64,000 nt of DNA from Anaerolineales bacterium (GTDB lineage: Bacteria > Chloroflexota > Anaerolineae > Anaerolineales > Villigracilaceae): positions 3,713-67,712 of the forward strand of contig DAOUAS010000019.1 of NCBI GenBank assembly GCA_034433295.1. Reading direction: 5' to 3'. A program made the translations under genes and the position numbers. Each line of letters starts with the position of its first letter. Position 1 is the first letter of the stretch. Shown here in pieces: positions 15,054 to 60,937 of this stretch. Under the pieces are notes generated by a model, which was not told where the DNA came from, searched no databases, and worked only from the letters and a program-made list of their open reading frames with translations.

Positions 15054-15055
15054 AA

Positions 15056-24623: not shown

Positions 24624-24626
24624 TTT

Positions 24627-26198
24627 ATGGAAACACCCCTCATCCTTGTTGTTGACGATGAACCCGGCATTGCGCTTTTATGCCAGCGCCTGCTTACGCG
24701 CTCAGGCTATAAAGTCGAAACCCAAACCGATCCCCGAAAAGCCATCGATTACTTGAAGGAAAATAGAATCGACCTCCTCTTGGTGGACATCCGTATGCCG
24801 GAAGTGGATGGCTTCGAGGTTATTCAACACGCCCAGCGGCTTCAACCCGATGCCGCAATGCTCATCATGACCGGGCATGGAACGGTCGAGACCGCGATCC
24901 GCGCCCTGCGACAGGGGGTGGACGGACTGATTCTAAAACCGTTCAGCGCTGGCAGCGAACTGGTGGATGCCGTCAAACTAGCGCTTTCCGACAGTCAGCA
25001 AAAGCGTGACGCCGCCCGCATGCACGCTCTGCGACCTCTCTTCTCTGTCACAGAATCGCTCCTTTCGGAAACCCGCCGCGAACCGCTGCTCGACCTGATC
25101 GTAAACGTCATTTGCGAACACCTGCATTGTTCAGGCGCCGCTTGTTTTCAAAAGAAGGAGGATGGCGCTTTTTCATTACTGGCTTCCTGTGGCAGGGATT
25201 TTCCATCCGCCTTCATGGAATTGGTGACGCATGTGGATGGACTGTCTTCCCCGGTGTTGGTCAATGCGAATGGCCCGGGCGACCCCGAGCTGCGCAAAAA
25301 CATCTCCGCCCTTGGGTTGGGCGCTGTCATCCTCGTGCCGATTCTCCGTCCAAACCTGTGCATGATGCTGTGCGCCGTGCGCGCTGTCAATGAGCCGCCG
25401 CTTCGTGAAGCGGACCTGGAGTTGTTCCAGATTCTTTCGCGTCAGGCTGCTGTTGCGCTTGAAAATTCCCGCCTGTATGCCGAACAACTGGAATATGTCC
25501 GAAAGATGGAGGAATCCCAAAAGGCATTATTGCAAGCGGAAAAAATGGCCGCCGCAGGCAGGTTGAGCGCCTCCATTGCCCATGAAGTCAACAACCCGCT
25601 GCAGGCGGTTCAAAACTGCCTGCATCTGGCAGGACGGGATGATTTTCCCAGTGAAAAGCGAGCGGAATACTTCGATTTGGCCCGAGCCGAACTGGAGCGT
25701 CTGATCCTGACTGTTCGCCGCATGTTGGACTTCTACCGCCCCGGCGCAACCCTGCAGGAAAATGTCGATCTCACAGAGATGCTGCAGTACATCCTGAATC
25801 TGATGTCGAAACAGTTGTCTGAATTAAATGTCAAGATAGTGGTCGATTTTCTTGGGGACATTCCTGCTGTCAGGGCGGTTGGTAGTCAAATTCAGCAGGT
25901 GTTTATTAACCTAATCCTGAACGCAATGGATGCCATGCCTGAAGGCGGAGTCCTGACCATTACCCTTCGTCCGCTCAAGGGTGGTGTTGAGATCAAGTTC
26001 CAGGATCAGGGCAGGGGGATTCCCGTGGAAAAGCAGGAAAACATTTTCGAGCCATTTTTTAGCACAAAGGAAGGAGGCACGGGGTTGGGGCTGACAGTGA
26101 GTTACAATATAGTCACCGCGCATGGCGGCACGCTGGAGTTGCTGCCAGAACGCGGTCCCGGCGCTTGTTTTCGTATTTTTCTACCGATAGGAGGCTAA
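24627..26198 (+). CDS. receiver-domain histidine kinase (REC - GAF-like - HisKA - HATPase_c)
   Basis: REC (LILVVDDEPG...LLLVDIRMPEVDG...LKP), H-box SASIAHEVNNPLQ and G2 box GTGLGLTVS. Confidence 0.88.
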   Translation: METPLILVVDDEPGIALLCQRLLTRSGYKVETQTDPRKAIDYLKENRIDLLLVDIRMPEVDGFEVIQHAQRLQPDAAMLIMTGHGTVETAIRALRQGVDGLILKPFSAGSELVDAVKLALSDSQQKRDAARMHALRPLFSVTESLLSETRREPLLDLIVNVICEHLHCSGAACFQKKEDGAFSLLASCGRDFPSAFMELVTHVDGLSSPVLVNANGPGDPELRKNISALGLGAVILVPILRPNLCMMLCAVRAVNEPPLREADLELFQILSRQAAVALENSRLYAEQLEYVRKMEESQKALLQAEKMAAAGRLSASIAHEVNNPLQAVQNCLHLAGRDDFPSEKRAEYFDLARAELERLILTVRRMLDFYRPGATLQENVDLTEMLQYILNLMSKQLSELNVKIVVDFLGDIPAVRAVGSQIQQVFINLILNAMDAMPEGGVLTITLRPLKGGVEIKFQDQGRGIPVEKQENIFEPFFSTKEGGTGLGLTVSYNIVTAHGGTLELLPERGPGACFRIFLPIGG

Positions 26199-26200
26199 CA

Positions 26201-26935
26201 ATGAAGTCCAATATTTTGGTCGTTGACGATGAGCCTGTTGCGCGCCAGTCTCTGACGGATATTCTCAAATTGGAAGGATACAACGTTTCATCCGCTCCCA
26301 ACGGGCAGGCCGCTGTCGAATATGTCCGCACGCATCCCATTGATTTGATGATCGTGGATCTGCGAATGCCCGGCATGGACGGCCTTGAAGTGGTGCAGGT
26401 GGTCAATCAGGTTTCGCCTGAAACCGAGGTGATCTTGCTCACGGCTTTCGGTTCCACCGAAACGGCAATCCAAGCCTTGCGTTTGCGAATTCATGATTAC
26501 CTGTTGAAACCCGCCTCGCCTGCCCAAGTTTTGGCAAGTGTCAAGAAGGGACTGGCGCGTCATGAAGCCCGGTCTCGCGCGGGCAGCGCCGCCCTCAGCA
26601 CCGACGTGGATGAAACCGTGGAGGTCTTTTCACTCAAGGATGGGACAACGGTTGACCTTTCCCGCCGCCAGATCAAACACAAGAGCAAGGTGGAACATCT
26701 GACACCCGCCGAAGGCAGATTATTGCGAATTCTGATCGAGAATGAAGGCAAGGTGTTTTCACACCGTGAACTGGTTCTGCTGGTTCAAGGGTACGATACT
26801 TCGCAGCGTGAGGCGCCGGAAATTTTGCGTCCTCTGGTCAGCCGGTTGCGTCACAAACTGGATCAGTTCCCGTCCTTGTCGGAGCGGGTGGTTAGTGTGC
26901 GGGGCACGGGATATTTATACGAGGGGAATAAGTGA
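26201..26935 (+). CDS. OmpR-family response regulator (REC + winged helix)
   Basis: MKSNILVVDDEP...LMIVDLRMPGMDG...YLLKP, then LTPAEGRLLRILIENEGKVFSHRELV...VRGTGY. SD ggagg lies upstream. Confidence 0.88.
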   Translation: MKSNILVVDDEPVARQSLTDILKLEGYNVSSAPNGQAAVEYVRTHPIDLMIVDLRMPGMDGLEVVQVVNQVSPETEVILLTAFGSTETAIQALRLRIHDYLLKPASPAQVLASVKKGLARHEARSRAGSAALSTDVDETVEVFSLKDGTTVDLSRRQIKHKSKVEHLTPAEGRLLRILIENEGKVFSHRELVLLVQGYDTSQREAPEILRPLVSRLRHKLDQFPSLSERVVSVRGTGYLYEGNK

Positions 26936-26979: not shown

Positions 26980-27927
26980 CTATTCATATGGACCGAACAC
27001 GTCCTTGGGTAATCCAGGCGCGCGAATCCAGGAAAGCCAGCCCGTTTTTCCGCTATGCGTTGGCACGGTTGGGACTTCAAACATAACCAGGATAAGACTG
27101 ACGCCAAGTCCAAATGCCCCCAGCCATTGAAACAAGGTCAAATTTTCGCCCAGCCAGATATGGCTGAACAGGATTGCAATCAGCAGTTCGGCAAGTCCGA
27201 GCAGGGCGGTTTGCATTCCGCCGATCTTCTTCACGCCGAGGAAAAGAGCAATGCGAGAAAACATGGTCACGAAGGTCAATCCTGCAATCGGCTGCCAGGG
27301 GATGTTGGCGGCAGGCCAGGCGCGGTCGAAGATCAGGTAGGCAGGGACAACAACAGCGCTCATCGCCAGCAATGTGTAAAGCGCAACTGTTGGCGCGGGG
27401 ACTTCAAAAAGCACGCGCTGATTGATGGGGAGATGCATGGCATAAAGCACCGAGGCTCCAATCATCATCAAAACCCCTGTTGTGTCCGCCGGATTGTTCG
27501 GAATGCTTGTGAGCAGCAGAACGGCAACCGTGGCCAACCCCACTCGAAAGAATGTCAGGCGGCTGGGGGGTTGGTGATCGAGAATGAGCCAGAGCGCTAC
27601 AAAGAAGGGGTAAAGAGAGTAAAGCAATTGCCCAATGCTGGCATCCAGTCTTTGCAGCGCAAGGTAATACAAAAGCGAACCCAGTCCGTTGATTGCGCCT
27701 GCCAGCCCGCAGCCGATTAACCCCACCGGAAATATATATAGATATTGGCGATAGAACAGAGCTACGACCAGAAAAAGAATGCCAGCCGCAAAGCCGGTAC
27801 GTAAAGCCACAACGGCAAAAGGCGTAAATCCCAGGGTGATGGCCAGTTTTCCGAAAACGGGAGCCAGACCGAGGAATACTGCGGAACTGAAGGCGGCCAA
27901 AATGCCGGCTGTATGTTTTTTTTTCAA
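26980..27927 (-). CDS. DMT-superfamily (EamA-like) transporter
   Basis: Ten hydrophobic helices in two repeated halves, typical of EamA. Confidence 0.75.
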   Translation of the reverse strand: MKKKHTAGILAAFSSAVFLGLAPVFGKLAITLGFTPFAVVALRTGFAAGILFLVVALFYRQYLYIFPVGLIGCGLAGAINGLGSLLYYLALQRLDASIGQLLYSLYPFFVALWLILDHQPPSRLTFFRVGLATVAVLLLTSIPNNPADTTGVLMMIGASVLYAMHLPINQRVLFEVPAPTVALYTLLAMSAVVVPAYLIFDRAWPAANIPWQPIAGLTFVTMFSRIALFLGVKKIGGMQTALLGLAELLIAILFSHIWLGENLTLFQWLGAFGLGVSLILVMFEVPTVPTHSGKTGWLSWIRAPGLPKDVFGPYE

Positions 27928-27968: not shown

Positions 27969-29624
27969 TTATTTTATTAATGCTTTTACTTCTTCCAGGA
28001 ATTCATCGTTGAGAAAATCACCCTTTTGCATCAGGGATTGAATCTGACCGCTCAGCCTGTTCTTTTCATCGGGCGTCAGTTCCTTGGCGGTTGCAACGAT
28101 TACAGGAATGGTGGCTGTCTCCTGCTTTGCGCGCAGGGCTTCAATCACCCCAAAACCATCCAGCTCGGGCATCATCAAATCCAGCACGACAAGGTCCGGT
28201 AATTCGCGCTGGATTAGATCGAGACCTTCGCGTCCGTTGGTGGCCTCCAAAATGGTGAAACTTCCCTGCGATTGCAAAATGCGGCGAATCAAGCGGCGGG
28301 CCTCTGCGGTATCCTCCACGATAGCGATCTTGGGGAAACGTTCCGGCGCGACCTGGCTCAGGGCCGAGAGCAGGCCTTCCTGCGGGGTTTGTTCGCTGGT
28401 CATCAATTTAACGTCGCGCGACCAGTTGTCACCAAGAACGCCAGCCTCCGCTGGCATGGTGTGACCCGTGCAATTCACCACCACAGTGTCACTGGGCTTG
28501 ATGATGCCGGCGCGAATCAGCTTGAAGAGCCCGGCAAAGGCCACGGCTGCGGCAGGTTCGGCGGAAATTCCCTCCATTTTTGCCAGAACGTGCATGGCGC
28601 GGAAGGCATCCTCGTCACTCACACTCTCGAAAGCGCCATTGGTGCTATTCACATAATCGCGTAAAAATTGGTAGGAACGGCCGGGGTCGCCGGTGGCAAG
28701 CGTTTCGATGCGGGTTTTGGGCGAGGTGACGGTCTCCGCCTTTTCCAATCCCTTCTTCCAACTGGTCACCATGGGGGCGCAGCCTTCCGCCTGGATGGGG
28801 GCGAACGCGGGAATGTTTTCGATCCAACCCATGCTTTTCATTTCGCGGAAACCCTTGTAAATGCCGATGGGTCCCATGCCGCCGCTGATGGCCTGCACGT
28901 ACCAGTCGGGTGTGATCCAGGGATAACCTGTGTTTTCTGTATCCTGGATGGCGGTCAGTTGTTCGGCAATTTCGAATGCAATGGTCTTCATCGCTTCGAT
29001 GGAGGTAATGGTGCGCGCCCCCATATCCTGATACAAATGGCGTTGTTGCGCGAACTCGGCCGCAACCTGTTTGCATTGATCGTAGGAACCTGTGATTTTG
29101 ATGACCTGGCTTCCATACAGCGCGATTTCGCGCATTTTCATGGCAGGCACTAGGCTGGTGACGAAGGCCCATAGTTTCATCCCCGCGCGGGATGCGTAGG
29201 CCGAATAGGAAATTGCAACGTTGCCAGTGGAAGCTGCCACCATCTCGGTGATGCCAGCCTCCTTCAGCGCGGCAATTGTCACCGCCGCCTGCCTGTCCTT
29301 GAATGAGGATGTCGGACCCTGACGCTCATCCTTGATGTAAATATTGGGACAGCCCAGCATCATGCCCAGATTTACTGCGCGGATGAGCGGAGTTCCGCCT
29401 TCGCCGAGCGACAGGCTTATGTTTGGATTGCGGACGGGCAACAATTCACGATAGCGCCAGAGATCGAAGGGGCGTGAAGCCAGTTTGGGAAGCAGGGTCT
29501 TTCCGATGATTTCATAATCGTATTCCGCTTCACGCCACTGACTGTTGCACTTGGGGCATGTGGTTGAAGTTGGGTAGTATGGCGCCAGATGCCCGCAATC
29601 GACGCACTTGATGAGAAAGGACAC
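27969..29624 (-). CDS. threonine-synthase-like PLP enzyme fused to a C-terminal receiver (REC) domain
   Basis: N-terminal Zn-ribbon (CVDCG...CPKC), PLP-lysine motif SSFKDRQAAV and a fold-type-II body. The last 125 aa or so are KIAIVEDTAEARRLI...LVVLDLMMPELDG...IPVIVATAK...MQKG, i.e. REC. Confidence 0.85.
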   Translation of the reverse strand: MSFLIKCVDCGHLAPYYPTSTTCPKCNSQWREAEYDYEIIGKTLLPKLASRPFDLWRYRELLPVRNPNISLSLGEGGTPLIRAVNLGMMLGCPNIYIKDERQGPTSSFKDRQAAVTIAALKEAGITEMVAASTGNVAISYSAYASRAGMKLWAFVTSLVPAMKMREIALYGSQVIKITGSYDQCKQVAAEFAQQRHLYQDMGARTITSIEAMKTIAFEIAEQLTAIQDTENTGYPWITPDWYVQAISGGMGPIGIYKGFREMKSMGWIENIPAFAPIQAEGCAPMVTSWKKGLEKAETVTSPKTRIETLATGDPGRSYQFLRDYVNSTNGAFESVSDEDAFRAMHVLAKMEGISAEPAAAVAFAGLFKLIRAGIIKPSDTVVVNCTGHTMPAEAGVLGDNWSRDVKLMTSEQTPQEGLLSALSQVAPERFPKIAIVEDTAEARRLIRRILQSQGSFTILEATNGREGLDLIQRELPDLVVLDLMMPELDGFGVIEALRAKQETATIPVIVATAKELTPDEKNRLSGQIQSLMQKGDFLNDEFLEEVKALIK

Positions 29625-29659: not shown

Positions 29660-32600
29660 TTATGTGCGAACTCGTTCGAGCGACCGCTGAATGGATGTAA
29701 GCAGTTCTTTTTCGTTGAAGGAGCCCTTCGACAATAGTCGTTGACCGAATTCGTTTAACTGCTGTTTTTGTTCGTTTGTAAGTTCCATGCCGCTAATGAC
29801 GATCACCGGAATGTCGCGCAGTTTTTCGGATGCTTGCATGTTTTCCAATATCTTGAAGCCGTCCATTTCGGGCATGAACAGATCCAGGATCACGGCATGG
29901 GGAGGTTTGCCCGACGAGATGATATCCCAACCCACGCGTCCGCCTTCCGCGAGTATGGGCTTGTATCTTCCGTCGTCGATCAGCATTTTGCCGAGCAGCC
30001 GCAGGTCATCGGGGTTATCGTCGATCACCAACACATCGCGGATCGAGCCGTCGGTGTTCAGGCGATCCAGGGCATTGACGAGGTCTTCCTCCAAAATGGG
30101 TTTGACCAGATAATCTGTCGCCCCAAGGTTGAATCCCTTTTCGAGTTCTTCGACGATACTGCAGATAATGACGGGAATGTTGCGCGTGTCGGGGTCGCCT
30201 TTCAGGTTGTCCAAAACCTGCCAGCCATCGATGTTTGGCATCATAATGTCCAACGTTACCGCAAAAGGTCTGAGTTCCTTGACGCGTTCCACCGCTTTTG
30301 AAGGATCGGTCAATGGGACCACCTGATACCCCTGCGGGTGTAAATAGCGTTCGTATAGTCCAATAACCTGCATATCATCATCGATTGCCAGCACCACTTT
30401 ATTGCTGCCATCGGTGATGCTTTCGTGTTCCTTGTGGAAAAGGGGCAGGGTAAAGTGGAACGTGCTTCCCCTTCCAATTTCGCTTTCGACCCATATCTTG
30501 CCACCATGCATGTTGACAATGTGCTGGCAGATCGACAATCCGAGGCCGGTGCCGCCGGTTTTGCGGGTGGGGGAATCGTCCACCTGTGAGAAGGGTTGGA
30601 AGAGCTTTGCCTGATCCGGCTCGGCAATACCCGGACCTGTATCGGTGACGCTCACGCGAACTTCGTTGTGTCCGCTGGTTCCAGGCTTCAGCCCAACTTC
30701 CACGCTGATGATGCCTTCATCGGTGAATTTGGCCGCGTTCGAAAGCAGGTTGATCATCACCTGGCGGATGCGAATGGCGTCGGCCCGCACTGTTGGCAGG
30801 TTGGGCTGAATCGTGCGCTGCAATTGAATGGGCTTGTCCTTGATGAGCCCGGTCATGGTGGAAAGGACGCTGTTGGTGATATCGGAGATGTTCACTTCGT
30901 CGAAAGCCAGTTCCATCTTGCCGGCTTCGATCTTGGAAAGGTCCAGCACATCGTTGATCAGACCAAGCAGGTGTTGTCCCGAATTGTAGATGGCTGTCAG
31001 GTCCTGTTGTTGTAATTCGGTGACGGGACCGTCGATGCCCTTGATGATTACGCGCGAGAAACCGATGATCGAGTTGAGGGGTGTGCGCAATTCGTGGCTC
31101 ATATTGGCCAGGAACTGGCTCTTCATGCGGTCGATTTCGCGCATTTCCATAACAGCCTGCTGTGACAGTTCGAAGGAGCGCGCATTGTCGATGGCCACCG
31201 CCACCTGGTCTGAAAGTGTTTGAAGCACGGCTATGTCGTCTTCGGTTAGTGCGCCGGCAGACTTGGATTGAATGTCGATTACCCCGATGATGCGGCTTCC
31301 GATCCGCAGGGGGAGCGCGGCTTCCGCCCGCGTTTCAGGCAGCAGGGGGTTGAATTTGTGCGTTGGGCTTGCCGTGACGTCGTTGACCACGACAGCCTGT
31401 CCATCCATGGCCACTTTGCCGACGATGGATTTGTCGTTGATCTGTAGCGTATGCTTCCTTTCCTTCATTTCCTTTCCGGCTTCGCCGGTCGCTTCGCGCA
31501 GGACGGCATTGAAGCCGGTTTCCTCGACGATGAAAATGCCCGCATGGTAGAAGCGGAAACGTTCATTGATCAGGTTTACGGTTCGGGCGAAGATCGTGTT
31601 CAAGTCCAGCGTGGATGTGACCAGCCTGCTGATTTCCGCGGACGCCGCAAGGTACTCATTGCGGCGTCTGATTGCCTCTTCGGACTTTTTACGCTCTGTA
31701 ATGTCACGCGCCACCCAGAAGACATTGTTGTCATCGAGTTTGGTGAGCTTTGCCAGAAACCAGAAGACCTCGTTTCCCACTTGCATGTCATACTCGATCT
31801 GGGTGGGCTCGTCGTTTTCCAATGTCCGTCTGATTGCTTCTAGAAATTTATCGGCTGTTTCCCCGGGAAGCACATCGTGGACCAATTTGCCCAGCAACTC
31901 TTCCGGAGGCTTGATTAAACGCGACGGGTTTGTGGGCGCAATGCGCACATACCGGCCATCGCGGTCATAGACCAATACGATGTCTTCCATTGCCGAGAAT
32001 AAGGCGCGCAGGTCCGCTTCGGATTTGGCAAGGGACTCCTCCGATTTCTTGCGCTCTGTAATATCCTGATGCACGGAAAGGAAACCAAGAACTTTTCCGT
32101 TCTCATCGAGGATTGGACTGTTCGTTCCTGCGATGAAGACAAGGCGACCGTCCTTTGCCTTGTTGACGATTTCACCTGTGACGGTTCCTCCGCTCAAAAG
32201 CCTGTCCCAGAAGTGTTTGTATTGCACCTCTGTGATAAGCCCGGATTTCAGGATGCGCGGAGTCTTCCCCAGCGCTTCTTCACTGGTGAAACCGTATATT
32301 TTCTCGAATCCCGGGTTGATATATTGGATGGCGCCGTTGGGGTCGGTGATGAATACTGCATTGTCGGTCCTGTCGATCCCAAGTTTGAATTTTTGAGCTT
32401 CCTGGAACAGGCGCGCGTTTTCCAGCGCCAGCGATAACTGGTCTGTGACCTGTTTTATAAGCAGTTCGTCTTCCGGAGTCCACTGTCGCTGTTCTTCGGT
32501 CAGGATGCGCAGCGTAGCCCAGTCCTGGTAGCCGCTCTGGATATTGACGGAAAAAGTGGTTGTGGCGCTGTCCTCGTTGCGCACAGGCAGGGATTCGGCA

Positions 32601-32827
32601 AAAACCATTGTGGCAATATCGCGTCCGGTTGTTTGCGGACTTGGCGCCACTTCGGGTTTTGCCGGAGCGGGAGCCGGCGGCTGATGGGGTGGGATACCCG
32701 CAGATTCGATGGACGATAGAACCTTCCTCTCCTTTTTGGAAGGTTCCGGTTTTGCCGCGCTCTCTTCAGGAGTAAGCCCTTTGAATAAATTGTCAATTCG
32801 CTTGTTTATTTTCGGTTTCTTTGACAT
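29660..32827 (-). CDS. hybrid sensor histidine kinase (half-GAF module - PAS - PAS - GAF - HisKA - HATPase_c - REC - REC)
   Basis: H-box MSHELRTPLNSIIG, G boxes DTGPGI and GTGLGLS, and two receivers (VLAIDDD...VTLDIMMPNIDG; VLVIDDN...VILDLFMPEMDG). The GAF has the cluster signature FRFYHAGIFIVEE...TRAEAALPL...IGVIDIQS. The N-terminal QWTPEDELLIKQVTDQLSLALENARLFQE matches the sensors' second module. Confidence 0.9.
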   Translation of the reverse strand: MSKKPKINKRIDNLFKGLTPEESAAKPEPSKKERKVLSSIESAGIPPHQPPAPAPAKPEVAPSPQTTGRDIATMVFAESLPVRNEDSATTTFSVNIQSGYQDWATLRILTEEQRQWTPEDELLIKQVTDQLSLALENARLFQEAQKFKLGIDRTDNAVFITDPNGAIQYINPGFEKIYGFTSEEALGKTPRILKSGLITEVQYKHFWDRLLSGGTVTGEIVNKAKDGRLVFIAGTNSPILDENGKVLGFLSVHQDITERKKSEESLAKSEADLRALFSAMEDIVLVYDRDGRYVRIAPTNPSRLIKPPEELLGKLVHDVLPGETADKFLEAIRRTLENDEPTQIEYDMQVGNEVFWFLAKLTKLDDNNVFWVARDITERKKSEEAIRRRNEYLAASAEISRLVTSTLDLNTIFARTVNLINERFRFYHAGIFIVEETGFNAVLREATGEAGKEMKERKHTLQINDKSIVGKVAMDGQAVVVNDVTASPTHKFNPLLPETRAEAALPLRIGSRIIGVIDIQSKSAGALTEDDIAVLQTLSDQVAVAIDNARSFELSQQAVMEMREIDRMKSQFLANMSHELRTPLNSIIGFSRVIIKGIDGPVTELQQQDLTAIYNSGQHLLGLINDVLDLSKIEAGKMELAFDEVNISDITNSVLSTMTGLIKDKPIQLQRTIQPNLPTVRADAIRIRQVMINLLSNAAKFTDEGIISVEVGLKPGTSGHNEVRVSVTDTGPGIAEPDQAKLFQPFSQVDDSPTRKTGGTGLGLSICQHIVNMHGGKIWVESEIGRGSTFHFTLPLFHKEHESITDGSNKVVLAIDDDMQVIGLYERYLHPQGYQVVPLTDPSKAVERVKELRPFAVTLDIMMPNIDGWQVLDNLKGDPDTRNIPVIICSIVEELEKGFNLGATDYLVKPILEEDLVNALDRLNTDGSIRDVLVIDDNPDDLRLLGKMLIDDGRYKPILAEGGRVGWDIISSGKPPHAVILDLFMPEMDGFKILENMQASEKLRDIPVIVISGMELTNEQKQQLNEFGQRLLSKGSFNEKELLTSIQRSLERVRT

Positions 32828-33581
32828 ATTCCATTAACTCCTGGGCGAGCACGTGATATTGCGTTGTGCCTCGCGCGGCGGGTTTGTAGCGGGAGATCGG
32901 CAATCCTGCAATCGAACTTTCGCGCAGTTTTGTGTCCATTTCGATCACCGTGCTGAATACGCCTTCGCCAAATGTCGAACGAAGCTGCTCATGGATGTTG
33001 CGGTGCGTGCGGTTCCTGTTATCGAGCATTGTAACGAGAATGCGATATGCAAGGTTGGGATTGTCGTCTTCGCGAATGCGGCGTACGAGATTCATCATGT
33101 TGCGAAGAGCGTAGGCGGAGAAATACTCGGCCTGCGTGGGGATGAGCAGAAGGTCTGCCGACGCAAGGGCGTTTTGTGTAATTGCGCCAAGGGAGGGGGG
33201 GCAATCGAGCAAAACATAGTCGTACGGCAGGTTGGGCGTTCCGGCGATGGCTCGCTTGAGGATGGTGGTGTAATTTGTTCGCACGGGCAGGAATTGCTCG
33301 CATGTTTCGATCCGCAGGCTGGACGAAATCAGGTCCAGGTTTTCGACTTCCGTCCTTCGGCGCACATTCAGCAGCGGGACGTTGTCAAGAAGTATGTTGC
33401 TGGATGTGCTTTCGGACTCTCCCGGCTCGAACCCGAGAGCCAGCGTCAGGTTGGCTTGCGCATCCAGGTCGATAAGGAGGACACGACAGCCCAGTTCGCC
33501 AAGCGCGGCTCCCAGTGAGATGGTGGTTGTGGTCTTTGCAACGCCGCCTTTTTCATTGGATACTGCAATTGTTTTGGTCAT
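32793..33581 (-). CDS. ParA/MinD-family ATPase (orphan; no ParB nearby)
   Basis: Deviant Walker A KTIAVSNEKGGVAKTT and Walker B YVLLDCPP. Overlaps the kinase start by 35 nt. Confidence 0.88.
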   Translation of the reverse strand: MTKTIAVSNEKGGVAKTTTTISLGAALGELGCRVLLIDLDAQANLTLALGFEPGESESTSSNILLDNVPLLNVRRRTEVENLDLISSSLRIETCEQFLPVRTNYTTILKRAIAGTPNLPYDYVLLDCPPSLGAITQNALASADLLLIPTQAEYFSAYALRNMMNLVRRIREDDNPNLAYRILVTMLDNRNRTHRNIHEQLRSTFGEGVFSTVIEMDTKLRESSIAGLPISRYKPAARGTTQYHVLAQELMEYVKETENKQAN

Positions 33582-33598: not shown

Positions 33599-35845
33599 TT
33601 AATCGTCTTCCGATGGTGATACGCCTTTTTGCGGGATGATTTCAACGCGCGTGACGCCCAAAGCGCGCTTTAGTTCCTCAACCGCCGTCCTCACCATTTC
33701 CTGCGGGTCATTGGTACTGCGGATCTTGGTGGTGATGTCTGTTACGAGACGTTCACGCGAGGCGCGCGCGGATGTTTCCTCGAAAAGCCGGGCGTTATCC
33801 AACGCAAGACCGAGGCGTTCTGCGACCGCCCGCACGATATTGACTTCATCGGTTCTCCAATGCCTGCCCCCGGTGATGGGACGGATATCGAGGGTTCCGA
33901 TTGTCTGATTGCGCAATTTGATCGGGACAGTCAATGCGCCGTTTTCATTTGCATCCGGAAGTTCGTCCCTGGCTTTGTTTGCGGTGATGACCTGTCCGCC
34001 GGTCAGGGTTTGATGATAGCCAACAATGCCGGAGGCAGACTTCTTTTGCCACGAATCGGCAAGATATTCCCGGAAGATGGATTGCGATTCTGCGAGAGCC
34101 TCCTGAGCCTCCTGCAATAGGCGGACATTGTCAATGGAGATGGCGATTTGGTCTGCCAGCAGACTGAGGGTGGAGATATCCGTGTCGGTGAAGGCGTTTG
34201 GAACAGTGCTTTGCACGTCCAATGCGCCGATGATCTTGCCGCGCGCGGTGAGCGGCAGGGCCATTTCAGCGTGTGTGTCGGGCAGATCGGGGTTGTTGAA
34301 AAACACAGCATCTGAACCGGTATCCAGCGCAATGCGGGGGACACCGGTTGCAGTCACCATGCCTACGATGCCGACCTGTCCGACTTCGAGTTTGTGTTGT
34401 CTGTCCAGCATCTTTTGTCCGCCGGGACTGTTCGCCGCGCGCAGGATAGCATAGTTACCACTTTCGTTGAGAAGGAAGATGCCAACGTGATAGAACCCGA
34501 AACGTTCGCTCACAGCTCGTGTAACAAGAGGAAGGAGGAGTTCCAAGTCCTTTTCTGTCGAAAGGTATTGACCGATTTCTGCAATTGTCCGCAGGTCTCT
34601 GGCGCGTTTTTCGCTTTCCTTCGAAGTCTGTTCGAGTTCGGCGCTGCGATGTTCCAATTCCAAAGTGCGCTGTGCCACCCGGTCTTCCAACTCCGTCACC
34701 AGGTTTTGCAGTTGCCCAGCCATGCTGTTGAACGAATTGGTGAGCAGACCCACCTCATCCTTGGATGGGTTGGACACGCGCTGAGAGTAATCTCCGCTTG
34801 CCATTTTGTCGGCTGCTTCCTGGAGCCTGTGGATGGGCCTGGAAATTTGGTAAGTGGCGAACAAGGCCAATATGACATTGCCGATTATTGCGAAGAAGGC
34901 AAATACGCCGCGTTGATCGGAGATGAGTTGATCCTTTACCACTAACAGATCGCCCAGGTTAACAGCGATGCCGACCACGGCCCGGGTATCTGCGCCGATG
35001 GTAACTGGAGTCAAACCCAGGGCGTGGGGGGCGCCTCCCGGCGTCGTGAACAATTCCCCGGCAACGACCACTTGCCCATTCAAAGCCTGTTCGATGGATT
35101 TTGGCTCCAGCATGTAGGAGGAAAAATACGTCAATCCCGTGGCATCCTCGAAATCGGTGGCAACGATCTCCCCATCGATAATCAACGCCAGGTCGAGGCT
35201 GTGACCGGAAATGACGTTGATCTTCGAAAGCATCTTGTCATCCATCAGGCGGCTGCCGATGACCGCGCCGATCACCTTGCCGGAATTATCATGGACCGGG
35301 GTGGCGACCGAAATGTAGATTTGTTGTGGTTCGTCTCCCATGACAATGCCGCTGGCATTGAAACCCAGCAACGCCAGTTCGAGCAGACGATCTTCTCCGG
35401 CGGAGTTTTCTTCGGATACATCGAACAGCCGCCTGCCCTGGGCGTTTACTGTGTCTACGTCGTCGAAGTCGAGACGGGCGGCTGCAATCAACAGATCGGA
35501 TTGAACGGGCTTGATGTTCCCCCTTGTCAGCGCGTCCAACAACCCCGGAGTGTTGGAGAGCGCCACAGCATTATTGAGCATTTCCCGTTCGATTTCTTCG
35601 AAGCGGATCCGAATGATCTGCGCTTCCTGTTCGACATTTCGACGCCCGGCTTGGATCATGAAGCTATTCATGCCGATATTGGTTGCCAGAACCATTCCAA
35701 GCAACAGGAAACTGAATATCACGAAGACCAGAATGTTCAGCCTCGCGCCCAGTGTTGTTTTCTTGATGAGTTCCAAAAGCCGCATCAGTCTCTGCTCCTT
35801 TGCAGTCATCCAGACTTCGTCAGGACGGCTGCAAAATACGATCAA
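33599..35845 (-). CDS. membrane sensor paralog 1 (TM - extracytoplasmic domain - TM - HAMP - S-helix - GAF - half-GAF - tail), no output domain
   Basis: HAMP SRPIHRLQEAADKMASGDY...DEVGLLTNSFNSMAGQL, S-helix LEDRVAQRTLELE, GAF FGFYHVGIFLLNE...THAEMALPL...IGALDVQS. The start may instead be an internal Met. Confidence 0.85.
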   Translation of the reverse strand: MIVFCSRPDEVWMTAKEQRLMRLLELIKKTTLGARLNILVFVIFSFLLLGMVLATNIGMNSFMIQAGRRNVEQEAQIIRIRFEEIEREMLNNAVALSNTPGLLDALTRGNIKPVQSDLLIAAARLDFDDVDTVNAQGRRLFDVSEENSAGEDRLLELALLGFNASGIVMGDEPQQIYISVATPVHDNSGKVIGAVIGSRLMDDKMLSKINVISGHSLDLALIIDGEIVATDFEDATGLTYFSSYMLEPKSIEQALNGQVVVAGELFTTPGGAPHALGLTPVTIGADTRAVVGIAVNLGDLLVVKDQLISDQRGVFAFFAIIGNVILALFATYQISRPIHRLQEAADKMASGDYSQRVSNPSKDEVGLLTNSFNSMAGQLQNLVTELEDRVAQRTLELEHRSAELEQTSKESEKRARDLRTIAEIGQYLSTEKDLELLLPLVTRAVSERFGFYHVGIFLLNESGNYAILRAANSPGGQKMLDRQHKLEVGQVGIVGMVTATGVPRIALDTGSDAVFFNNPDLPDTHAEMALPLTARGKIIGALDVQSTVPNAFTDTDISTLSLLADQIAISIDNVRLLQEAQEALAESQSIFREYLADSWQKKSASGIVGYHQTLTGGQVITANKARDELPDANENGALTVPIKLRNQTIGTLDIRPITGGRHWRTDEVNIVRAVAERLGLALDNARLFEETSARASRERLVTDITTKIRSTNDPQEMVRTAVEELKRALGVTRVEIIPQKGVSPSEDD

Positions 35846-35846: not shown

Positions 35847-36683
35847 TTACGGGGTTGGGATGAACCCGAGCGCCTTTAATTCAGCCTGTCCTTCATCGGA
35901 GGACAACCAGTCGATCAGCGGTTTGATTTCGCTTTCATGTTCCGCCAGATAGCCGATGCCGGCCGAGCCGAGGATGGGGTAGGATGCATTATTTGGCAGA
36001 ATGCCGTTGATGGCAATCGTTTCCACTTCCGCATTTTCGGCCAGCACAGGCGGCAGGGCGGCAATCCCAACCGCTCCCCTTGTGCCTTCCACTGAGAAGA
36101 TCATATCCGACTGGCTGAAGAGAGTTTTGGCTGTTTCAGAAAGGGCTGTTTCGCCTATCATGGCTTTTCGCAATCCCTTTGTGCTTGAGTCGTCCTCATC
36201 GCGCACATACAGGACAAGATCAAGGTTTGCCCCCCCTACCTGGGACCAGTTTGTGACCTTACCCGAAAAGATTTCAGTGATCTGACGTTTGTTCAGACTT
36301 GAAACGCCGGTTACAGAGGGATGAACGATAATCGATTGCCCAATCAGACCCATTTCGTAGTATTTGATGTTTTTGGCGATTTCTTCATCCTTGGGTGGGC
36401 GCGCCATTGCCGCCGCATCCAGCAAACCTTCGAGGATGCCGGTAACGCCGCTGCCGGTGCTGTTGCCGGACATGACTTCGAGTTTATAGCCGGGGGTTGC
36501 CCGTTCAAATGCGGGCGTCAGAACTTCGAGTACGCTTGTAATCGTTCCCGAGCCCGATATCTTCAATACCACCAGCCGGGAGGGCGTTGGGGTTGGCGGT
36601 TGCGAAGAGAAGCCCGCGCACGAGGTTGAGAATAGCGCGCCGGTCAATATCAGAAAAATAAAACGTATATAACGGTTTTTCAT
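35847..36683 (-). CDS. PstS-like (PBP_like_2) periplasmic substrate-binding lipoprotein, orphan
   Basis: Lipobox LFSTSC plus LKISGSGTI and NSTGSGVTG motifs of the phosphate-binding-protein fold. No ABC permease or ATPase anywhere in the window. Confidence 0.75.
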   Translation of the reverse strand: MKNRYIRFIFLILTGALFSTSCAGFSSQPPTPTPSRLVVLKISGSGTITSVLEVLTPAFERATPGYKLEVMSGNSTGSGVTGILEGLLDAAAMARPPKDEEIAKNIKYYEMGLIGQSIIVHPSVTGVSSLNKRQITEIFSGKVTNWSQVGGANLDLVLYVRDEDDSSTKGLRKAMIGETALSETAKTLFSQSDMIFSVEGTRGAVGIAALPPVLAENAEVETIAINGILPNNASYPILGSAGIGYLAEHESEIKPLIDWLSSDEGQAELKALGFIPTP

Positions 36684-39148
36684 TCCAAATCCTTCACGTT
36701 CGTTGCTTGCAGGTTGATGTAAATATCCGCATCATGTAGCAGGTGGCTTAATTCGTTTGCAGTGGTCCGGAGAATGTTTTCGGTGCGGAAAGAAGCGGAA
36801 ATTTTCGAAGCAATATCTGAAATGGCGCGTTCCATTTCGGCGCGCCGGGATGTTTCATCGAAGAGGCGGGCGTTTTCAGCGGCAAGCGCCACCCGCTCCG
36901 CAACGATCTTGATCAAATCGACCCGGTCCTGGCTGACAGGTTCATCCTTTGGAAGTTGAACGGATAGCGAGCCTATTGTCTCTCCTCGCACGATAATGGG
37001 GATGTTGATATCCGAGGCTGTGCCAGTATTCCCCACATCCTCATTTGCCTGCAGGGGAACGGCGCCGGAGACGGAATATCGATACCCGCCAAGTTGTTCC
37101 TCCCTTGTCAACCGTCCCCAGGTTTCACGAACATATTGACGTTGAATGACCTCGAACTCCAGGATCGCCTTTTGCGCCTGGTCGAAGAGACGCGCGTTTT
37201 GAATGGCAAGGCTTACCTGGTCTGCCAGCGCTGATAGGGTTTTGAAGTCTTCGTCGGTGAACGCGCCGACCTCGGTGCTTTGAATATCAAGGGCGCCGAC
37301 AACCTGGTTGCCGGCTTTGAGCGGCAGCGCCATTTCGGAGTGGGTGAAGGGAAGTTCAGGGTTGGTGAAATAGATCGCGTCCTCGCCGACATCGAGCGCA
37401 ATGCGCGGTTTGCCGGTTTGCGTCACATATCCGACGATGCCTTGCTCCCCGATTTTCAACTGGTGTCCGCGGGCGAGCATTTTCATGCCACCTTCGCTGT
37501 TGGCCGCACTAAGGACGGCGTACAGGTCGTTCTTGTCGTTCAGGAAAATTCCCACATGATAAAAACCGAAGTTTTCGCTGATTGTCCTCGAGATTTGAGG
37601 CAGGAGAACCTCGAGGTTGTGGGTGGCGTTGATAACGCGGGCTACGTTGGTGATGGCTTCGAATTGTTTTCCTCTGCGGACACCTTTTTCAAGCGCGTCC
37701 TGCAGTTCTGATGTGCGCTCGGACACCCTTTGTTCAAGCGTGTTGACCGAGCCTTTGATGGCGTCGGTCATTATGTTCAGTGTTTCTGCCAGGATTCCGA
37801 TTTCATCCCGGTTTTTGATCTCCGCTTTTGCGTTGTAATTTCCTCTGCCGATTTCGCCGGCAATGCCTGTCAGGGATTTCAGCGGGGCGGTCAATCGGTT
37901 TCCAATGACAAGCGTCGAAACGGATGCCATGGACAGGATCAACGCCACGAGCAAAACGCTGGTGGTGATGATATTTCTTGTTTCCTGAAGAATCTGGGCT
38001 TTGACTGTGGTTGATTCGAGCAGCAACTCTTCGGACGGCACTGTGATGATCAGGCTGTATCCAAGCGTCGGAATTTGCTGATACGCCACGAATCTCTCGA
38101 CCCCGTTTACATTCACCGGGATCACAATATCGCTGCCGAGGGAGCGTTGTTCCAGTACCTGCCGAAAATCCCCGGAAACTTTTTCCAATTTTGTTTGGTC
38201 TAATATTTCTCCCAGAGACGCCGTTTCTGGCGTGAAGCCAAAATCGCCGTAACCGGCTTCGGGCAGGGCGATCAAGCGGTTCTCGCTGTCGATCAGGAAG
38301 GCGTATCCTGTTTCTCCAATCTTGATCTCGGAAACCAGGCTTGTGATTCTCTCCAGTTGAATATCCATGGCCGAAACGCCCTGAAATTTTCCGCCGCCGT
38401 CGAAGACCGGTACGCTGGCTGTTATCACCAGCCCGTTCAGCGCCGCATCCTGATAGGGCGCGGACCATACCACACTTTGATCGGGGTTTTGCCCCGGCGA
38501 TGCCGCAACATACCAGGGGCGTCCGGTTACATCGAAGTCTGCCGGCACGATATTTGCTAGGTCGATGTTGGGGAAGTAGATGGTTTCCTTGAACGTCCCC
38601 CCGAAATAGACAGCGATGATGTCGGGGTTGTCCTTGAGAATGGAAGGCACGATCAACTCGGTTTGCTTTATCACATTTAGTCTAGAGGTAAATTCATCCG
38701 TAAGTTCGGCGCCGGCGGGTATGAAAACCGAGGCGGTCTCCGAATTCGGATTATCCCATGCCCCGGCGGGTGTTTGGACAAGGGCTTCCTTTGCATTCCA
38801 ATAGATTCCGCTATTCAACCTGGATTCCCCGGCGAACATTTGTTTTTCCGTTTTGCCCAACATGGAAATGTAATCCCTCATCGACTCGAAAAAGACATTA
38901 AGGATTGCGGCCTGTTCCCGGCTGGTGGTCTGGAGTTTCTCCTCTGCCTTGTTGCGAACGCTCGATTCGAGCTGGGCGGTCAGGACTGCGTTTGATTCCT
39001 GCGTGCGAAAATAAACGTAATAACCCATGCCCACAATGGACGCAAAGGTGATCAGTAGGTTGCCCAGGATCAGTTTGGCGCGCAAGTTCATGCGGCTGAA
39101 GGGCATTTTTCGGGTGTTTCCAGGTTTAGACGAACGAAGCATGCTCAT
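36680..39148 (-). CDS. membrane sensor paralog 2 (TM - dCache - TM - HAMP - S-helix - GAF - half-GAF - tail)
   Basis: dCache_1-like GRPWYVAA...LVITASVPVFD..GKFQGVSAMDI...GETGYAFLIDSENRLIA, HAMP RDEIGILAETLNIMTDAI, S-helix LEQRVSERTSELQ, GAF FGFYHVGIFLNDK. Confidence 0.88.
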   Translation of the reverse strand: MSMLRSSKPGNTRKMPFSRMNLRAKLILGNLLITFASIVGMGYYVYFRTQESNAVLTAQLESSVRNKAEEKLQTTSREQAAILNVFFESMRDYISMLGKTEKQMFAGESRLNSGIYWNAKEALVQTPAGAWDNPNSETASVFIPAGAELTDEFTSRLNVIKQTELIVPSILKDNPDIIAVYFGGTFKETIYFPNIDLANIVPADFDVTGRPWYVAASPGQNPDQSVVWSAPYQDAALNGLVITASVPVFDGGGKFQGVSAMDIQLERITSLVSEIKIGETGYAFLIDSENRLIALPEAGYGDFGFTPETASLGEILDQTKLEKVSGDFRQVLEQRSLGSDIVIPVNVNGVERFVAYQQIPTLGYSLIITVPSEELLLESTTVKAQILQETRNIITTSVLLVALILSMASVSTLVIGNRLTAPLKSLTGIAGEIGRGNYNAKAEIKNRDEIGILAETLNIMTDAIKGSVNTLEQRVSERTSELQDALEKGVRRGKQFEAITNVARVINATHNLEVLLPQISRTISENFGFYHVGIFLNDKNDLYAVLSAANSEGGMKMLARGHQLKIGEQGIVGYVTQTGKPRIALDVGEDAIYFTNPELPFTHSEMALPLKAGNQVVGALDIQSTEVGAFTDEDFKTLSALADQVSLAIQNARLFDQAQKAILEFEVIQRQYVRETWGRLTREEQLGGYRYSVSGAVPLQANEDVGNTGTASDINIPIIVRGETIGSLSVQLPKDEPVSQDRVDLIKIVAERVALAAENARLFDETSRRAEMERAISDIASKISASFRTENILRTTANELSHLLHDADIYINLQATNVKDLE

Positions 39149-41984: not shown

Positions 41985-42953
41985 TTAGGGCAGATAGGAT
42001 GGGTTGAGCAGTTCGAGCGGGTCGATCAATTGGGTGGTCGTGCCGATCGAAATAAGATAGTCGGATGTCATCTGCGTAACCGAGTAAATGGAATTTGTCC
42101 CTTCGATATCGAATAATTCCCTGTTTTCCTCTGCAGTGTAAAGCCTCTGATTATCATCGGGTTGTATTTCATCGGCGCTTACCCCAAGATATTTGGCGGC
42201 AATTTCGCGGGTTTCTCCCTGGTGTTGCATTCGGTACTCCACGGCTTGAAACCATGCTTTGAGGAAGGCGCGGATGTCCTCCGGCCTTTCATCCACAACC
42301 GCCTTGCTGAAAACGATCGTATCCGGAAAGAGGCGCATTTTTTGATTTGGGTAGATGATCCTGTTCCCATCTGCAATTGCCTTGGATAGGTGCGGCTCCC
42401 ATGTGTATACCGCCTGTACGCGTCCGCTCTTCAGCGCCTCCGAAGCGTCTTCCGGGTTGACGTTTACGATGGTTACATCGCTGACGCTCATTAAACCGCT
42501 CTTCAACATTTGAGACACCATTAGTTCGTATTGTGTTCCAAGGAGGACGCCGATAACCTTCCCATTTAAATCCTGGATCGAAGCAATCTCCGGGCTTGCG
42601 ACGATCGAGTCCGCGCCCCCATCGTCATTAAGCCCGACAACTTTCATCGGATAGGTATGGTGAATATTGATAACATCACCAACTGCAATCAACGCCCCGT
42701 CAATTTGCCCTGAGGCAAGGTCAGGGTAGATCTCTGGATAGACATCGTAATATACCGGTTCGACTTCGACCCCATACTTCTCGAAAAAACCTTTCTCCTT
42801 GGCTACCAGGAGCGTGTAATCGCCCCACCACTGCGTATATTCCACCCGGAGCGGTGGATTTGCGCGTTCTTCAGCCTGAAGCGGCGCGCATGAAGTGGGA
42901 ATGGTTGTCATTAAAACTGTAAGTAGGACGGTGTTAAAAAATTTTTTTTTCAT
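41985..42953 (-). CDS. NMT1/SsuA-like periplasmic substrate-binding lipoprotein, orphan
   Basis: Signal peptide with Cys (TIPTSCAP) and an overall pattern like nitrate/sulfonate/bicarbonate-type binding proteins (WWGDYTLLVAKEKGFFEKYGVEVE...). No transporter partner genes. Confidence 0.7.
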   Translation of the reverse strand: MKKKFFNTVLLTVLMTTIPTSCAPLQAEERANPPLRVEYTQWWGDYTLLVAKEKGFFEKYGVEVEPVYYDVYPEIYPDLASGQIDGALIAVGDVINIHHTYPMKVVGLNDDGGADSIVASPEIASIQDLNGKVIGVLLGTQYELMVSQMLKSGLMSVSDVTIVNVNPEDASEALKSGRVQAVYTWEPHLSKAIADGNRIIYPNQKMRLFPDTIVFSKAVVDERPEDIRAFLKAWFQAVEYRMQHQGETREIAAKYLGVSADEIQPDDNQRLYTAEENRELFDIEGTNSIYSVTQMTSDYLISIGTTTQLIDPLELLNPSYLP

Positions 42954-59850: not shown

Positions 59851-59859
59851 TAAAGATGG

Positions 59860-60802: not shown

Positions 60803-60811
60803 TTGAGTTTG

Positions 60812-60883: not shown

Positions 60884-60937
60884 TTGCGGAAACGAGTGGA
60901 ATTATACGCCAGGTGGAAAAGGCATGTCAAGCGAAGC

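Follow-up and report, generated by a model that had tools for sequence, protein, structure and literature searches.

Eleven kinase-less sensors and one soluble hybrid histidine kinase share GAF modules in a conserved gene string of Anaerolineae

Introduction

The merging of many inputs into one phosphorylation output is, to our knowledge, understood in depth for chemotaxis arrays only. A gene string on a contig of an Anaerolineales bacterium (assembly GCA_034433295.1, contig DAOUAS010000019.1; the whole stretch analysed, 64,000 nucleotides (nt) long, is called the window below) raises the question of how such merging might be achieved by sensors that have no output of their own. The string encodes eleven sensors of this kind and, in the open reading frame (ORF) 29660-32827 on the minus strand, a hybrid histidine kinase of 1055 amino acids (aa). 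An earlier note, made from the sequence without database searches, had pointed out that this kinase carries both the GAF subtype of the sensors and their half-GAF module, and had suggested that the eleven sensors signal by heteromeric contact with the one kinase, in parallel with many methyl-accepting chemotaxis proteins (MCPs) feeding one CheA. The host belongs to Anaerolineae, a lineage that is abundant in sludge, sediments and groundwater and scarcely studied by experiment. Here we compare the modules of the kinase with those of the sensors, follow both through related loci, and weigh what the sharing of modules may mean for the way in which the sensors act.

Results

Architecture of the kinase

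According to Pfam the kinase is composed, from the N- to the C-terminus, of an N-terminal module, two PAS domains, a GAF domain, HisKA, HATPase_c and two receivers (REC), with all its Pfam domains well over the curated cutoffs. HisKA is located at aa 568-636 (76.4 bits, cutoff 26.9), where the H-box SHELRTPL is readable in the translation, and HATPase_c at aa 683-796 (112.7 bits, cutoff 26.4). The two C-terminal receivers were matched by Response_reg in two stretches (113.9 bits) and display the motifs IDDD...TLDIMMP...CS...KP and IDDN...ILDLFMP...SG...SKG, respectively. By these domains and motifs the protein is an ordinary member of the HisKA-type hybrid kinases, for which autophosphorylation and phosphotransfer are predicted. 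All the peptides quoted by the earlier note were found in its translation, and its prediction of a soluble kinase agrees with the absence of any hydrophobic segment (maximal 19-residue Kyte-Doolittle mean of 1.08) and of any transmembrane (TM) segment in the syntenic orthologous kinase ORFs of the fetched loci (0/84); TM-like segments are present in 11/11 sensors.

The sensors end in one invariant cassette

The alignment of the C-terminal halves of the eleven sensors (S1 to S11) reveals that varied inputs (dCache, MASE11 and other TM bundles, mostly with HAMP) are joined to a single invariant cytoplasmic cassette, which comprises a first GAF (GAF1, ~162 aa), a helical linker in which one Trp is conserved (LINK), a second module (M2) and a C-terminal TAIL of ~55 aa. 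The final 56 residues of M2, forming a beta-beta-helix unit, correspond to the stretch that the earlier note called half-GAF. Hidden Markov models (HMMs) located all four parts in every sensor save S1, in which a complete GAF replaces LINK and M2. TAIL forms the end of 11/11 window sensors (examples with coordinates are S7 and S11 in Table 1), and in related loci it lies within 27 residues of the stop codon in 250/250 sensors, none of which has an output domain (0/250). A Pfam search for HisKA gave no match in any of the 11 sensors. The eleven proteins are thus kinase-less as the earlier note had held, all of them carrying the same cassette and none an enzymatic output domain. TAIL, which had not been singled out before, is the feature that distinguishes all the kinase-less proteins.

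Comparison of alignments from related loci with HHalign indicates homology between M2 and columns 70-163 of GAF1 (probability 99.1%), and TAIL aligns weakly, in register, with GAF1 columns 2-44, which cover the first two helices and the first strand (53%, E 1e-4). A protein search with the C-terminus of a sensor gave only 30 short fragments, of use for the alignment but not for a survey of architectures. The AlphaFold2 model of S7 aa 388-572 (30-sequence alignment; predicted local distance difference test, pLDDT, 87.8) opens with a long helix at its entry and a sheet of five strands accompanied by one short helix; a helix of 45 residues then leads from M2 into TAIL, where a second helix follows, the last 14 residues being unstructured. 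The best fold matches of this model in the PDB are all GAFs (phytochrome GAF/PHY, NLH1, Lcd1 and PDE), at the modest level of E values from 4e-3 and TM-scores of 0.3-0.46. The homology, the model and the fold matches together suggest that M2 is a compact GAF-like domain and that TAIL, which resembles a GAF cut off after its initial helices and strand, is the stub of one more such domain. Two other arrangements were considered. A circularly permuted GAF, in which M2 and TAIL would make one GAF in cis, fits the alignment but finds no support in the monomer model, where M2 is a self-contained five-stranded unit; M2 and TAIL may still complete a GAF in a dimer or in trans. A TAIL acting as a histidine-less DHp that pairs with the DHp of the kinase was rejected, with an HHalign probability of 0.4%.

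The kinase GAF belongs to the sensor subtype

A profile built from the GAF1 of the eleven window sensors (the HMMs of the other parts were likewise built from window sequences) recognised the GAF of the kinase with 179.5 bits (independent E value 1e-54), the sensors themselves scoring 205-255 bits. The other GAFs of the window stayed at 76 bits or below, with 52 bits for the best one of a neighbouring kinase and 59-76 bits for the non-array GAFs of S1. In the same way, the identity between the kinase GAF and the sensor GAF1 domains averages 39% (30-46), inside the span found among the sensors themselves (mean 43.5%, 30-60), as compared with 19-31% for the other GAFs of the window. The GAF that directly precedes the H-box is thus of the array subtype, as had been claimed. 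Over 119 kinase orthologues and 250 sensors, both sets reach a conservation of 80% or more at 36 of the 162 GAF columns, among them those of the motifs FYH.GIF, IVG.V, NP.LP.T..E.A.PL and LADQVA.AI.NAR; the most striking shared motif, NPxLPxTR(S/A)ExAxPL, precedes the last hairpin. Pfam GAF, GAF_2 or GAF_3 matches over their cutoffs were obtained in the kinase and in every sensor, covering profile positions ~1-133.

The N-terminal module of the kinase resembles M2

The module that stands ahead of the PAS domains of the kinase (Nmod) was compared with the sensor M2 by using HHalign on 116 kinase orthologues, which yielded a probability of 98.9% and an E value of 1.9e-17 over 61 columns. The motif R-x-W-T-x-D-E is common to Nmod and M2 and is missing from GAF1, and the match of Nmod to the C-terminal end of an ordinary GAF1 had an E value of 2.9e-8 over 41 columns. 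In the reverse test an Nmod HMM gave median scores of 27.4 bits on M2 segments, 17.9 bits on GAF1 ends and 16.2 bits on the end of the kinase's own GAF, with overlapping ranges. The window-built HMM of the half-GAF part of M2 (M2half) was dropped as a discriminator, since it scored the end of the kinase's own GAF about as high as Nmod (38 vs 36 bits), and for this reason the profile-profile and reverse-HMM tests were used. The assignment of the kinase N-terminus (~32393-32575, aa 85-145) to the second module of the sensors is therefore confirmed at the level of sequence, as a resemblance that is specific, though not sharply so.

In an AlphaFold2 model based on 43 sequences Nmod displays strands at residues 90-97 and 103-109 and a helix at 118-146 (pLDDT 62-77), followed by a confidently predicted PAS. 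Nmod would thus comprise the last hairpin and helix only, and hence would not be a complete GAF. It keeps its N-terminal place (aa ~60-150) in 119/120 homologues among the matches listed, the exception being an N-terminally truncated entry, while the region between Nmod and the final GAF varies by extra PAS and GAF domains, with lengths of 1048-1809 aa; the number of array-type GAFs also differs among the orthologues. The retention of Nmod amid a variable middle, together with the doubly conserved residues of GAF1, argues for selection rather than decay.

A sister lineage carries the cassette fused to the kinase core

The profile of M2half plus TAIL was searched against 1.84 billion representative proteins, giving 114,072 matches at E<=1e-3 and 13,014 clusters (50% identity) at E<=1e-30, a family annotated merely as 'GAF domain-containing protein'. 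Its top matches are giants of 1140-3952 aa with 7-21 matched repeats. Six of these giants were examined and contain GAF domains alone (one has also MASE11); several end in M2half plus TAIL, and one is named Anaerolineales.

In the locus L162, which represents a sister lineage, kinase-less sensors are followed by ParA, a soluble protein with 10 GAFs, a fused kinase, an enzyme with PALP and REC, and EamA. The fused kinase (L162:15370-19659, 1429 aa) reads TM-dCache-TM-HAMP-GAF1 (243 bits)-LINK-M2half (69 bits)-GAF-GAF-HisKA-HATPase-REC, and the surroundings of its H-box closely match those of the window kinase. Full GAFs thus occupy the place where the free sensors have TAIL. The soluble 10-GAF protein (L162:10001-15364), encoded directly after ParA, starts with MADDELKRLLEGLFSD, ends in M2half plus TAIL and has no kinase. 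The fused architecture was found in at least 100 clusters (90% identity), of which the named ones are Anaerolineae, with GAF1 scores of 233-248 bits. Three further contexts agree (L163:10001-14416, L164:3344-7096 and L165:10001-13834), the fused gene having an unchanged operon position ahead of the PALP-REC enzyme, with kinase-less sensors upstream. In this lineage the whole sensor cassette is thus wired, within one chain, to the kinase core known from the window. Of the evidence gathered here, such a Rosetta-stone fusion speaks most strongly for placing cassette and kinase in one pathway; the fused form also shows the exit helix of M2 to be a signalling output. Exchange of modules by recombination is evidently common.

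The locus is conserved across Anaerolineae

Relatives of the kinase were sought by a scan of one genome per species (GTDB), which returned 407 of them, and the best 80 loci were mapped. Nearly all of these derive from metagenome-assembled genomes of Anaerolineales, Anaerolineae or Chloroflexi, including Candidatus Villigracilis. The counts given here refer to 79 loci overall and to the 69 whose upstream sequence, of at least 3 kb, allowed a judgement on the array. TAIL-bearing sensors were found upstream of the kinase in 69/69 loci, so that kinase and array, whose joint conservation in relatives the earlier note had made decisive for its proposal, are kept together throughout. ParA lies between array and kinase in 65/69 loci by a strict automatic criterion and in essentially all by eye. 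Downstream of the kinase, a gene for a threonine-synthase-like (ThrC-like) enzyme is present in 76/79 loci and EamA in 67/79. The array itself comprises from 3 to 11 or more sensors, and a metagenome scan with S1 indicates a fixed upstream end formed by two receivers, an S1-like multi-GAF sensor and further sensors. The ~34-kb string is a conserved multi-sensor signalling system of Anaerolineae, probably expressed as one transcription unit.

A ParA-like ATPase and the basic peptide of the kinase

The ParA-like gene directly precedes that of the kinase, with an overlap of 35 nt between the 3' end of the former and the start of the latter; every NCBIfam match of the ATPase is under its cutoff, no equivalog being reached. 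The first 22 residues of the kinase follow the consensus MSKKPKI[DN]KRLDKLFKGI.PEE, in which K3, K4, K6, I7, R10, L11, L14 and F15 are conserved at 90% or more (43 orthologues). A variable stretch rich in Pro, Ala and Lys comes after the peptide, and in the AlphaFold2 model (43 sequences) aa 18-88 are disordered (pLDDT <50). A short, conserved N-terminal peptide of positive charge and, after it, an unstructured region rich in Ala and Pro are described for activators of ParA/MinD ATPases such as ParB, MinE, PomX and McdB, and also for TlpT, which is the partner of PpfA, a ParA-like protein that positions a cluster of chemoreceptors (PMC7993993). Both elements of this signature, the conserved basic extension and the disordered stretch, are present at the N-terminus of kinases of the window type. 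In the fused lineage the protein encoded after ParA still has the motif KRLxxLF at its N-terminus, there in a mostly acidic peptide. Because of the sequence pattern and the gene order, the kinase may be a partner or a cargo of the ParA-like ATPase.

Organisation of the gene string

All genes of the string lie on the minus strand (Table 1), beginning with two stand-alone receivers and continuing with the eleven sensors, among which two binding proteins are encoded, the ParA-like ATPase, the kinase, the ThrC-like enzyme with its receiver and the EamA transporter. Overlaps of 4-35 nt occur between many of them. The candidate promoter is situated within the 390-nt gap before the first receiver and is the sole promoter-like site in 59500-61500; a scan for promoters and terminators inside the string, at its kinase end, gave nothing above chance. 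The overlaps, the perfect promoter consensus upstream and the lack of promoter- or terminator-like sites above chance at the kinase end make a single long transcription unit plausible.

The two binding proteins are located directly upstream of S9 (SsuA/NMT1-like) and S11 (PstS-like), with similar places in related loci, and this placement suggests binding-protein-dependent sensing by particular sensors. At the other end of the string, the ThrC-like enzyme, which depends on pyridoxal phosphate (PLP) by its family, reached 262 bits against the NCBIfam threonine synthase, under the cutoff of 303. The fusion of such an enzyme with a receiver and its proximity to an exporter may hint at a regulated secreted metabolite.

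The five receivers counted by the earlier note (two on the kinase, two stand-alone and one on the ThrC-like enzyme) were all found by Pfam, which detected neither an Hpt nor a DNA-binding domain in any string protein. Its statements that the kinase is the only one and that no DNA-binding output exists stand for the same-strand string and fail in its surroundings, where two kinases and an OmpR-type regulator are encoded on the plus strand. This convergent module ends 45 bp from the EamA stop, extends to ~5 kb beyond the string and is syntenic in at least 49/79 loci; the GAFs of its kinases are not of the array subtype (<=52 bits on the GAF1 profile).

Table 1. Positions of the string features and of the convergent neighbour module in the window
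Feature	Position	Strand	Evidence or remark
Candidate operon promoter, sigma-70 TTGACA-18 nt-TATAAT, 12/12	60901..60930	-	~200 nt upstream of first receiver gene
Stand-alone receiver, 131 aa	60305..60700	-	Response_reg 105 bits; syntenic upstream of S1 in metagenome loci
Stand-alone receiver, 150 aa	59860..60312	-	Response_reg 75 bits; syntenic
S1, 1284 aa: TM, dCache, HAMP, four GAFs (third = GAF1, fourth = full GAF replacing M2), TAIL	55996..59850	-	Pfam, HMMs
S2, 555 aa: MASE11, GAF1, M2, TAIL	54332..55999	-	Pfam, HMMs
S3, 556 aa: MASE11, GAF1, M2, TAIL	52678..54348	-	Pfam, HMMs
S4, 614 aa: TM, HAMP, GAF1, M2, TAIL	50797..52641	-	Pfam, HMMs
S5, 576 aa: polytopic TM, GAF1, M2, TAIL	49070..50800	-	Pfam, HMMs, hydropathy
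S6, 781 aa: dCache/PDC, HAMP, GAF1, M2, TAIL	46719..49064	-	Pfam, HMMs
S7, 572 aa: MASE11, GAF1 (~45461-45946), LINK+M2 (~45101-45460), TAIL (44945-45094)	44942..46660	-	Pfam, HMMs, AlphaFold2
S8, 646 aa: TM, GAF1, M2, TAIL	42968..44908	-	Pfam, HMMs, hydropathy
Periplasmic solute-binding protein, NMT1/SsuA-like, inside array	41985..42953	-	Pfam NMT1; NCBIfam SsuA_fam 156 bits, under cutoff of 163.5
S9, 945 aa: polytopic TM, dCache, HAMP, GAF1, M2, TAIL	39145..41982	-	Pfam, HMMs, hydropathy
S10, 822 aa: dCache, HAMP, GAF1, M2, TAIL	36680..39148	-	Pfam, HMMs
Periplasmic PstS-like binding protein, inside array	35847..36683	-	Pfam PBP_like_2
S11, 748 aa: TM, weak Cache, HAMP, GAF1, M2, TAIL (33602-33770)	33599..35845	-	Pfam, HMMs
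ParA/MinD-like P-loop ATPase, 262 aa, deviant Walker A KGGVAKT	32793..33581	-	Pfam AAA_31 162 bits, CbiA, ParA
Kinase basic N-terminal peptide, aa 1-22, MSKKPKINKRIDNLFKGLTPEE; then disordered Pro/Ala-rich linker, aa 23-88	32762..32827	-	Conservation, AlphaFold2
Kinase half-GAF module Nmod, aa 89-146, beta-hairpin and long helix into PAS1	32390..32563	-	HHalign vs M2; AlphaFold2
Kinase PAS1-PAS2	31673..32389	-	Pfam PAS_4/PAS_9, two stretches; region variable among orthologues
Kinase GAF, array subtype, aa 396-556, immediately N-terminal of H-box	31160..31642	-	Sensor GAF1 profile, identity, column conservation
Kinase core with REC1 and REC2 (HisKA SHELRTPL, HATPase_c)	29687..31126	-	Pfam
Threonine-synthase-like PLP enzyme, 551 aa, N-terminal Cys4 ribbon and C-terminal receiver	27969..29624	-	PALP 218 bits, Response_reg 68 bits
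EamA-family transporter, last string gene	26980..27927	-	Pfam EamA
Convergent module: 3xGAF-HisKA-HATPase kinase (22023-24623), REC-GAF-HisKA-HATPase kinase (24627-26198), OmpR-type regulator (26165-26935)	22023..26935	+	Pfam

Discussion

Proposed mechanism

The reading that we prefer, and to which we give a probability of about one half, is that the sensors directly control the kinase in trans; the specific GAF-GAF or half-GAF interface put forward in the earlier note would account for about one third of that half. It is from homology, architecture, synteny and fusion that we infer every protein-protein contact in the following scheme. The sensors would regulate the soluble kinase by direct contact within a membrane-associated complex, and the interface may be formed by the homologous GAF-type modules and/or by TAIL. 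The ParA-like ATPase, to judge from the ParA-partner signature, may position or organise the kinase via its basic N-terminal peptide. The gene content further suggests that the kinase would phosphorylate five receivers, namely the two in its own chain, the two stand-alone ones and that of the ThrC-like enzyme, and that the product of this enzyme may leave the cell via the EamA transporter.

Several observations weigh against this reading. TAIL is the mark of all kinase-less members and is absent from the kinase, and the model confidence for Nmod is only moderate. Within genomes, no meaningful excess of similarity between kinase GAF and sensor GAF1 could be detected (38.72 vs 38.50% identity, 165/5000 permutations). 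The fused lineage keeps kinase-less sensors despite having a kinase with its own sensor; its fused kinase has no Nmod, and its post-ParA protein has a full GAF1 after the N-terminal peptide. Because the kinase of that lineage lacks Nmod and kinase-less sensors are yet retained, the half-GAF cannot be a universal docking site. The shared modules can alternatively be explained by duplication and recombination within the operon, and two further co-conserved kinases nearby could be alternative partners of the sensors. Concerted evolution or gene conversion between the kinase GAF and the sensor GAF1 was also considered and set aside, the difference of 0.2 identity points being too small to speak for either side.

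Alternative explanations

The shared modules might be no more than the record of descent, by duplication, truncation and recombination, from one ancestral membrane sensor kinase, the GAF and half-GAF of the kinase being relics and no interface. The sensors would then act through another partner that recognises TAIL, for which the candidates are the ParA-like ATPase, the stand-alone receivers, the soluble protein with many GAFs that the fused lineage has, and the kinase-less proteins themselves. The correspondence of M2 and TAIL with GAF1 columns 70-163 and 2-44 would be expected from such a history, as would the full GAF that S1 has at the place of M2 in the other sensors and the fact that the M2 plus TAIL profile matches every GAF-GAF junction of the GAF-only giants. 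The fused lineage, too, looks like a reciprocal exchange, the cassette being joined to the kinase core and the protein with the N-terminal peptide to TAIL, and the confinement of TAIL to the kinase-less proteins and the lack of within-genome co-variation point the same way. Against it stand the N-terminal position that Nmod holds in 119/120 orthologues amid varying modules and the 36/162 GAF1 columns that both sets conserve at 80% or more; moreover, a common origin would not keep the modules from serving as an interface. We regard descent as the sole explanation as unlikely, though a serious contender.

Still more improbable, in our judgement, is that sensors and kinase have one GAF subtype because they all bind the same small molecule in the GAF1 pocket, a diffusible metabolite or nucleotide and maybe the product of the ThrC-like enzyme acting in feedback, so that the kinase would read the molecule and not the sensors. 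The NPxLPxTR(S/A)ExAxPL motif, kept in both sets before the last hairpin, would lie where many GAFs close their ligand pocket, and a PLP enzyme and an exporter are encoded downstream in most loci (76/79 and 67/79). A ligand would leave the transmission by output-less sensors unexplained, as well as the half-GAF and TAIL, and no close solved relative of these GAFs was found from which a ligand could be inferred (best PDB sequence match 32.9 bits). There is also a slight chance that the kinase-less proteins send no signal to this kinase. They would then be structural or scaffolding membrane proteins in an assembly positioned by ParA, or their target would be the convergent module of two kinases and OmpR, and the soluble kinase would sense alone via its PAS and GAF domains. 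It does have two PAS and a GAF of its own, at least 49/79 loci have kept the convergent module as a neighbour, and the GAF-only giants, with up to 21 repeats, look more scaffold-like than sensor-like. The GAFs of the neighbour kinases, however, score <=52 bits and fall outside the array subtype, the sensors bear classic input domains and HAMP, and it is to this kinase core, not to the neighbour kinases, that the cassette is fused.

Direct control in trans may also be part of a bolder proposal, which taken as a whole we hold only tentatively and consider rather doubtful. It is that the locus encodes an unrecognised type of receptor array, in which dozens of output-less GAF1-M2-TAIL receptors would be combined with a ParA-positioned soluble hybrid kinase made of the same modules, with an output through the REC-controlled ThrC-like enzyme and EamA. 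In the most specific version TAIL, the first third of a GAF, and the half-GAF of the kinase, the last third, would dock by completing one GAF-like fold in trans. If true, many cues from outside the cell would together govern how filamentous Anaerolineae make and export a signal derived from an amino acid.

Comparison with known systems

Chemosensory arrays, built from MCP, CheW and CheA, share with the present system the many output-less membrane receptors, in which inputs that vary (dCache, HAMP) are joined to a cytoplasmic end that does not; by gene content there is also one soluble kinase per cluster, along with CheY-like single receivers, the ratio of sensors to kinase being 11:1 here and 3 to 11 or more elsewhere. 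The ParA-like ATPase encoded in the cluster adds a likeness to the PpfA-TlpT pair of Rhodobacter sphaeroides, as the likely partner has a positively charged N-terminal extension (PMC7993993). The two kinds of system differ in that the invariant end is here a GAF cassette with TAIL instead of a helical hairpin tip, methylation enzymes are missing, and the output is apparently a REC-fused PLP enzyme and not a motor. The search for the MCP signalling domain (PF00015, MCPsignal) gave no match in the 11 sensors at E<=0.01, and neither CheW nor CheA (Hpt/P5) was found in the string proteins, the kinase being of the HisKA type. The parallel drawn in the earlier note with MCPs and CheA is therefore apt as an analogy, and strengthened by the ParA-like ATPase, but does not extend to the domains themselves.

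Direct binding between a non-kinase GAF protein and a separate kinase has precedents. NreA controls NreB in this way in Staphylococcus carnosus (PMC12423327), and the GAF domain of rice OsERS2 alone binds and inhibits the kinase MHZ1/OsHK1 (PMC6981129). As in these pairs, a non-kinase GAF sensor is found here, encoded with the kinase to which it would bind. The known pairs have one sensor per kinase, as against 3 to 11 or more paralogues in the loci studied here, NreA is a soluble single GAF, and neither pair has a GAF subtype shared by sensor and kinase, a TAIL or a ParA. In the multikinase network of Pseudomonas aeruginosa to which RetS and GacS belong, a sensor is reported to modulate another kinase via a heteromer of homologous domains (PMC8498467). 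The contact of RetS with GacS is made by the DHp dimerisation domains; the sensors of the string have no DHp, and TAIL is unrelated to that of the kinase.

In tandem-GAF proteins such as phytochromes, the cyanobacterial adenylyl cyclase CyaB2 and PDE2/5/6, one GAF module is likewise linked to the next by long continuous helices, of which the 45-residue helix in the model of M2 and TAIL is reminiscent. Their output is in the same chain, whereas the chain of the sensors goes no further into the next GAF than its first helices and strand. Finally, the ParB, MinE, PomX and McdB systems share with the string a deviant Walker A ATPase, whose next gene encodes a product with a Lys/Arg-rich peptide of ~22 aa and a Pro/Ala-rich stretch (PMC7993993). 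The presumed activator is different: here it is a hybrid histidine kinase, and in the sister lineage its place is taken by a soluble protein with many GAFs.

The system can thus be described as a two-component pathway whose accessory sensors are arranged in the manner of a receptor array, and it is apparently unstudied. In the one literature library searched, no description of the operon, of TAIL or of a REC-fused ThrC-like enzyme was found, which is absence of evidence and no proof of novelty. Different parts, namely the GAF cassette, TAIL, a HisKA hybrid kinase and a ParA-like ATPase, seem to solve the same input-merging problem as chemotaxis arrays, and the natural occurrence of split and fused forms offers an experimental handle on the passage of signals between GAF modules in trans.

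Other features of the window

A TIR-domain protein of 209 aa (TIR_2, 88 bits) is encoded at 9524-10153 on the plus strand amid housekeeping genes. On the same strand two short ORFs flank a GH114 gene: one, at 19670-20068, covers the first 66 of 183 profile positions of a GH4 glycosidase, and the other, at 21353-21796, no more of a PfkB kinase than its C-terminal 133 positions; both are probably gene fragments or pseudogenes. Two adjoining and overlapping ORFs at 14349-15958 on the minus strand both encode Rce1-like CAAX proteases and are tandem paralogues. Two polytopic membrane proteins of 485 and 516 aa without a Pfam match are encoded at 3263-6257 on the plus strand, and it is to these genes that the window owes its most negative GC and AT skew (GC skew of -0.305 at 4001-6000).

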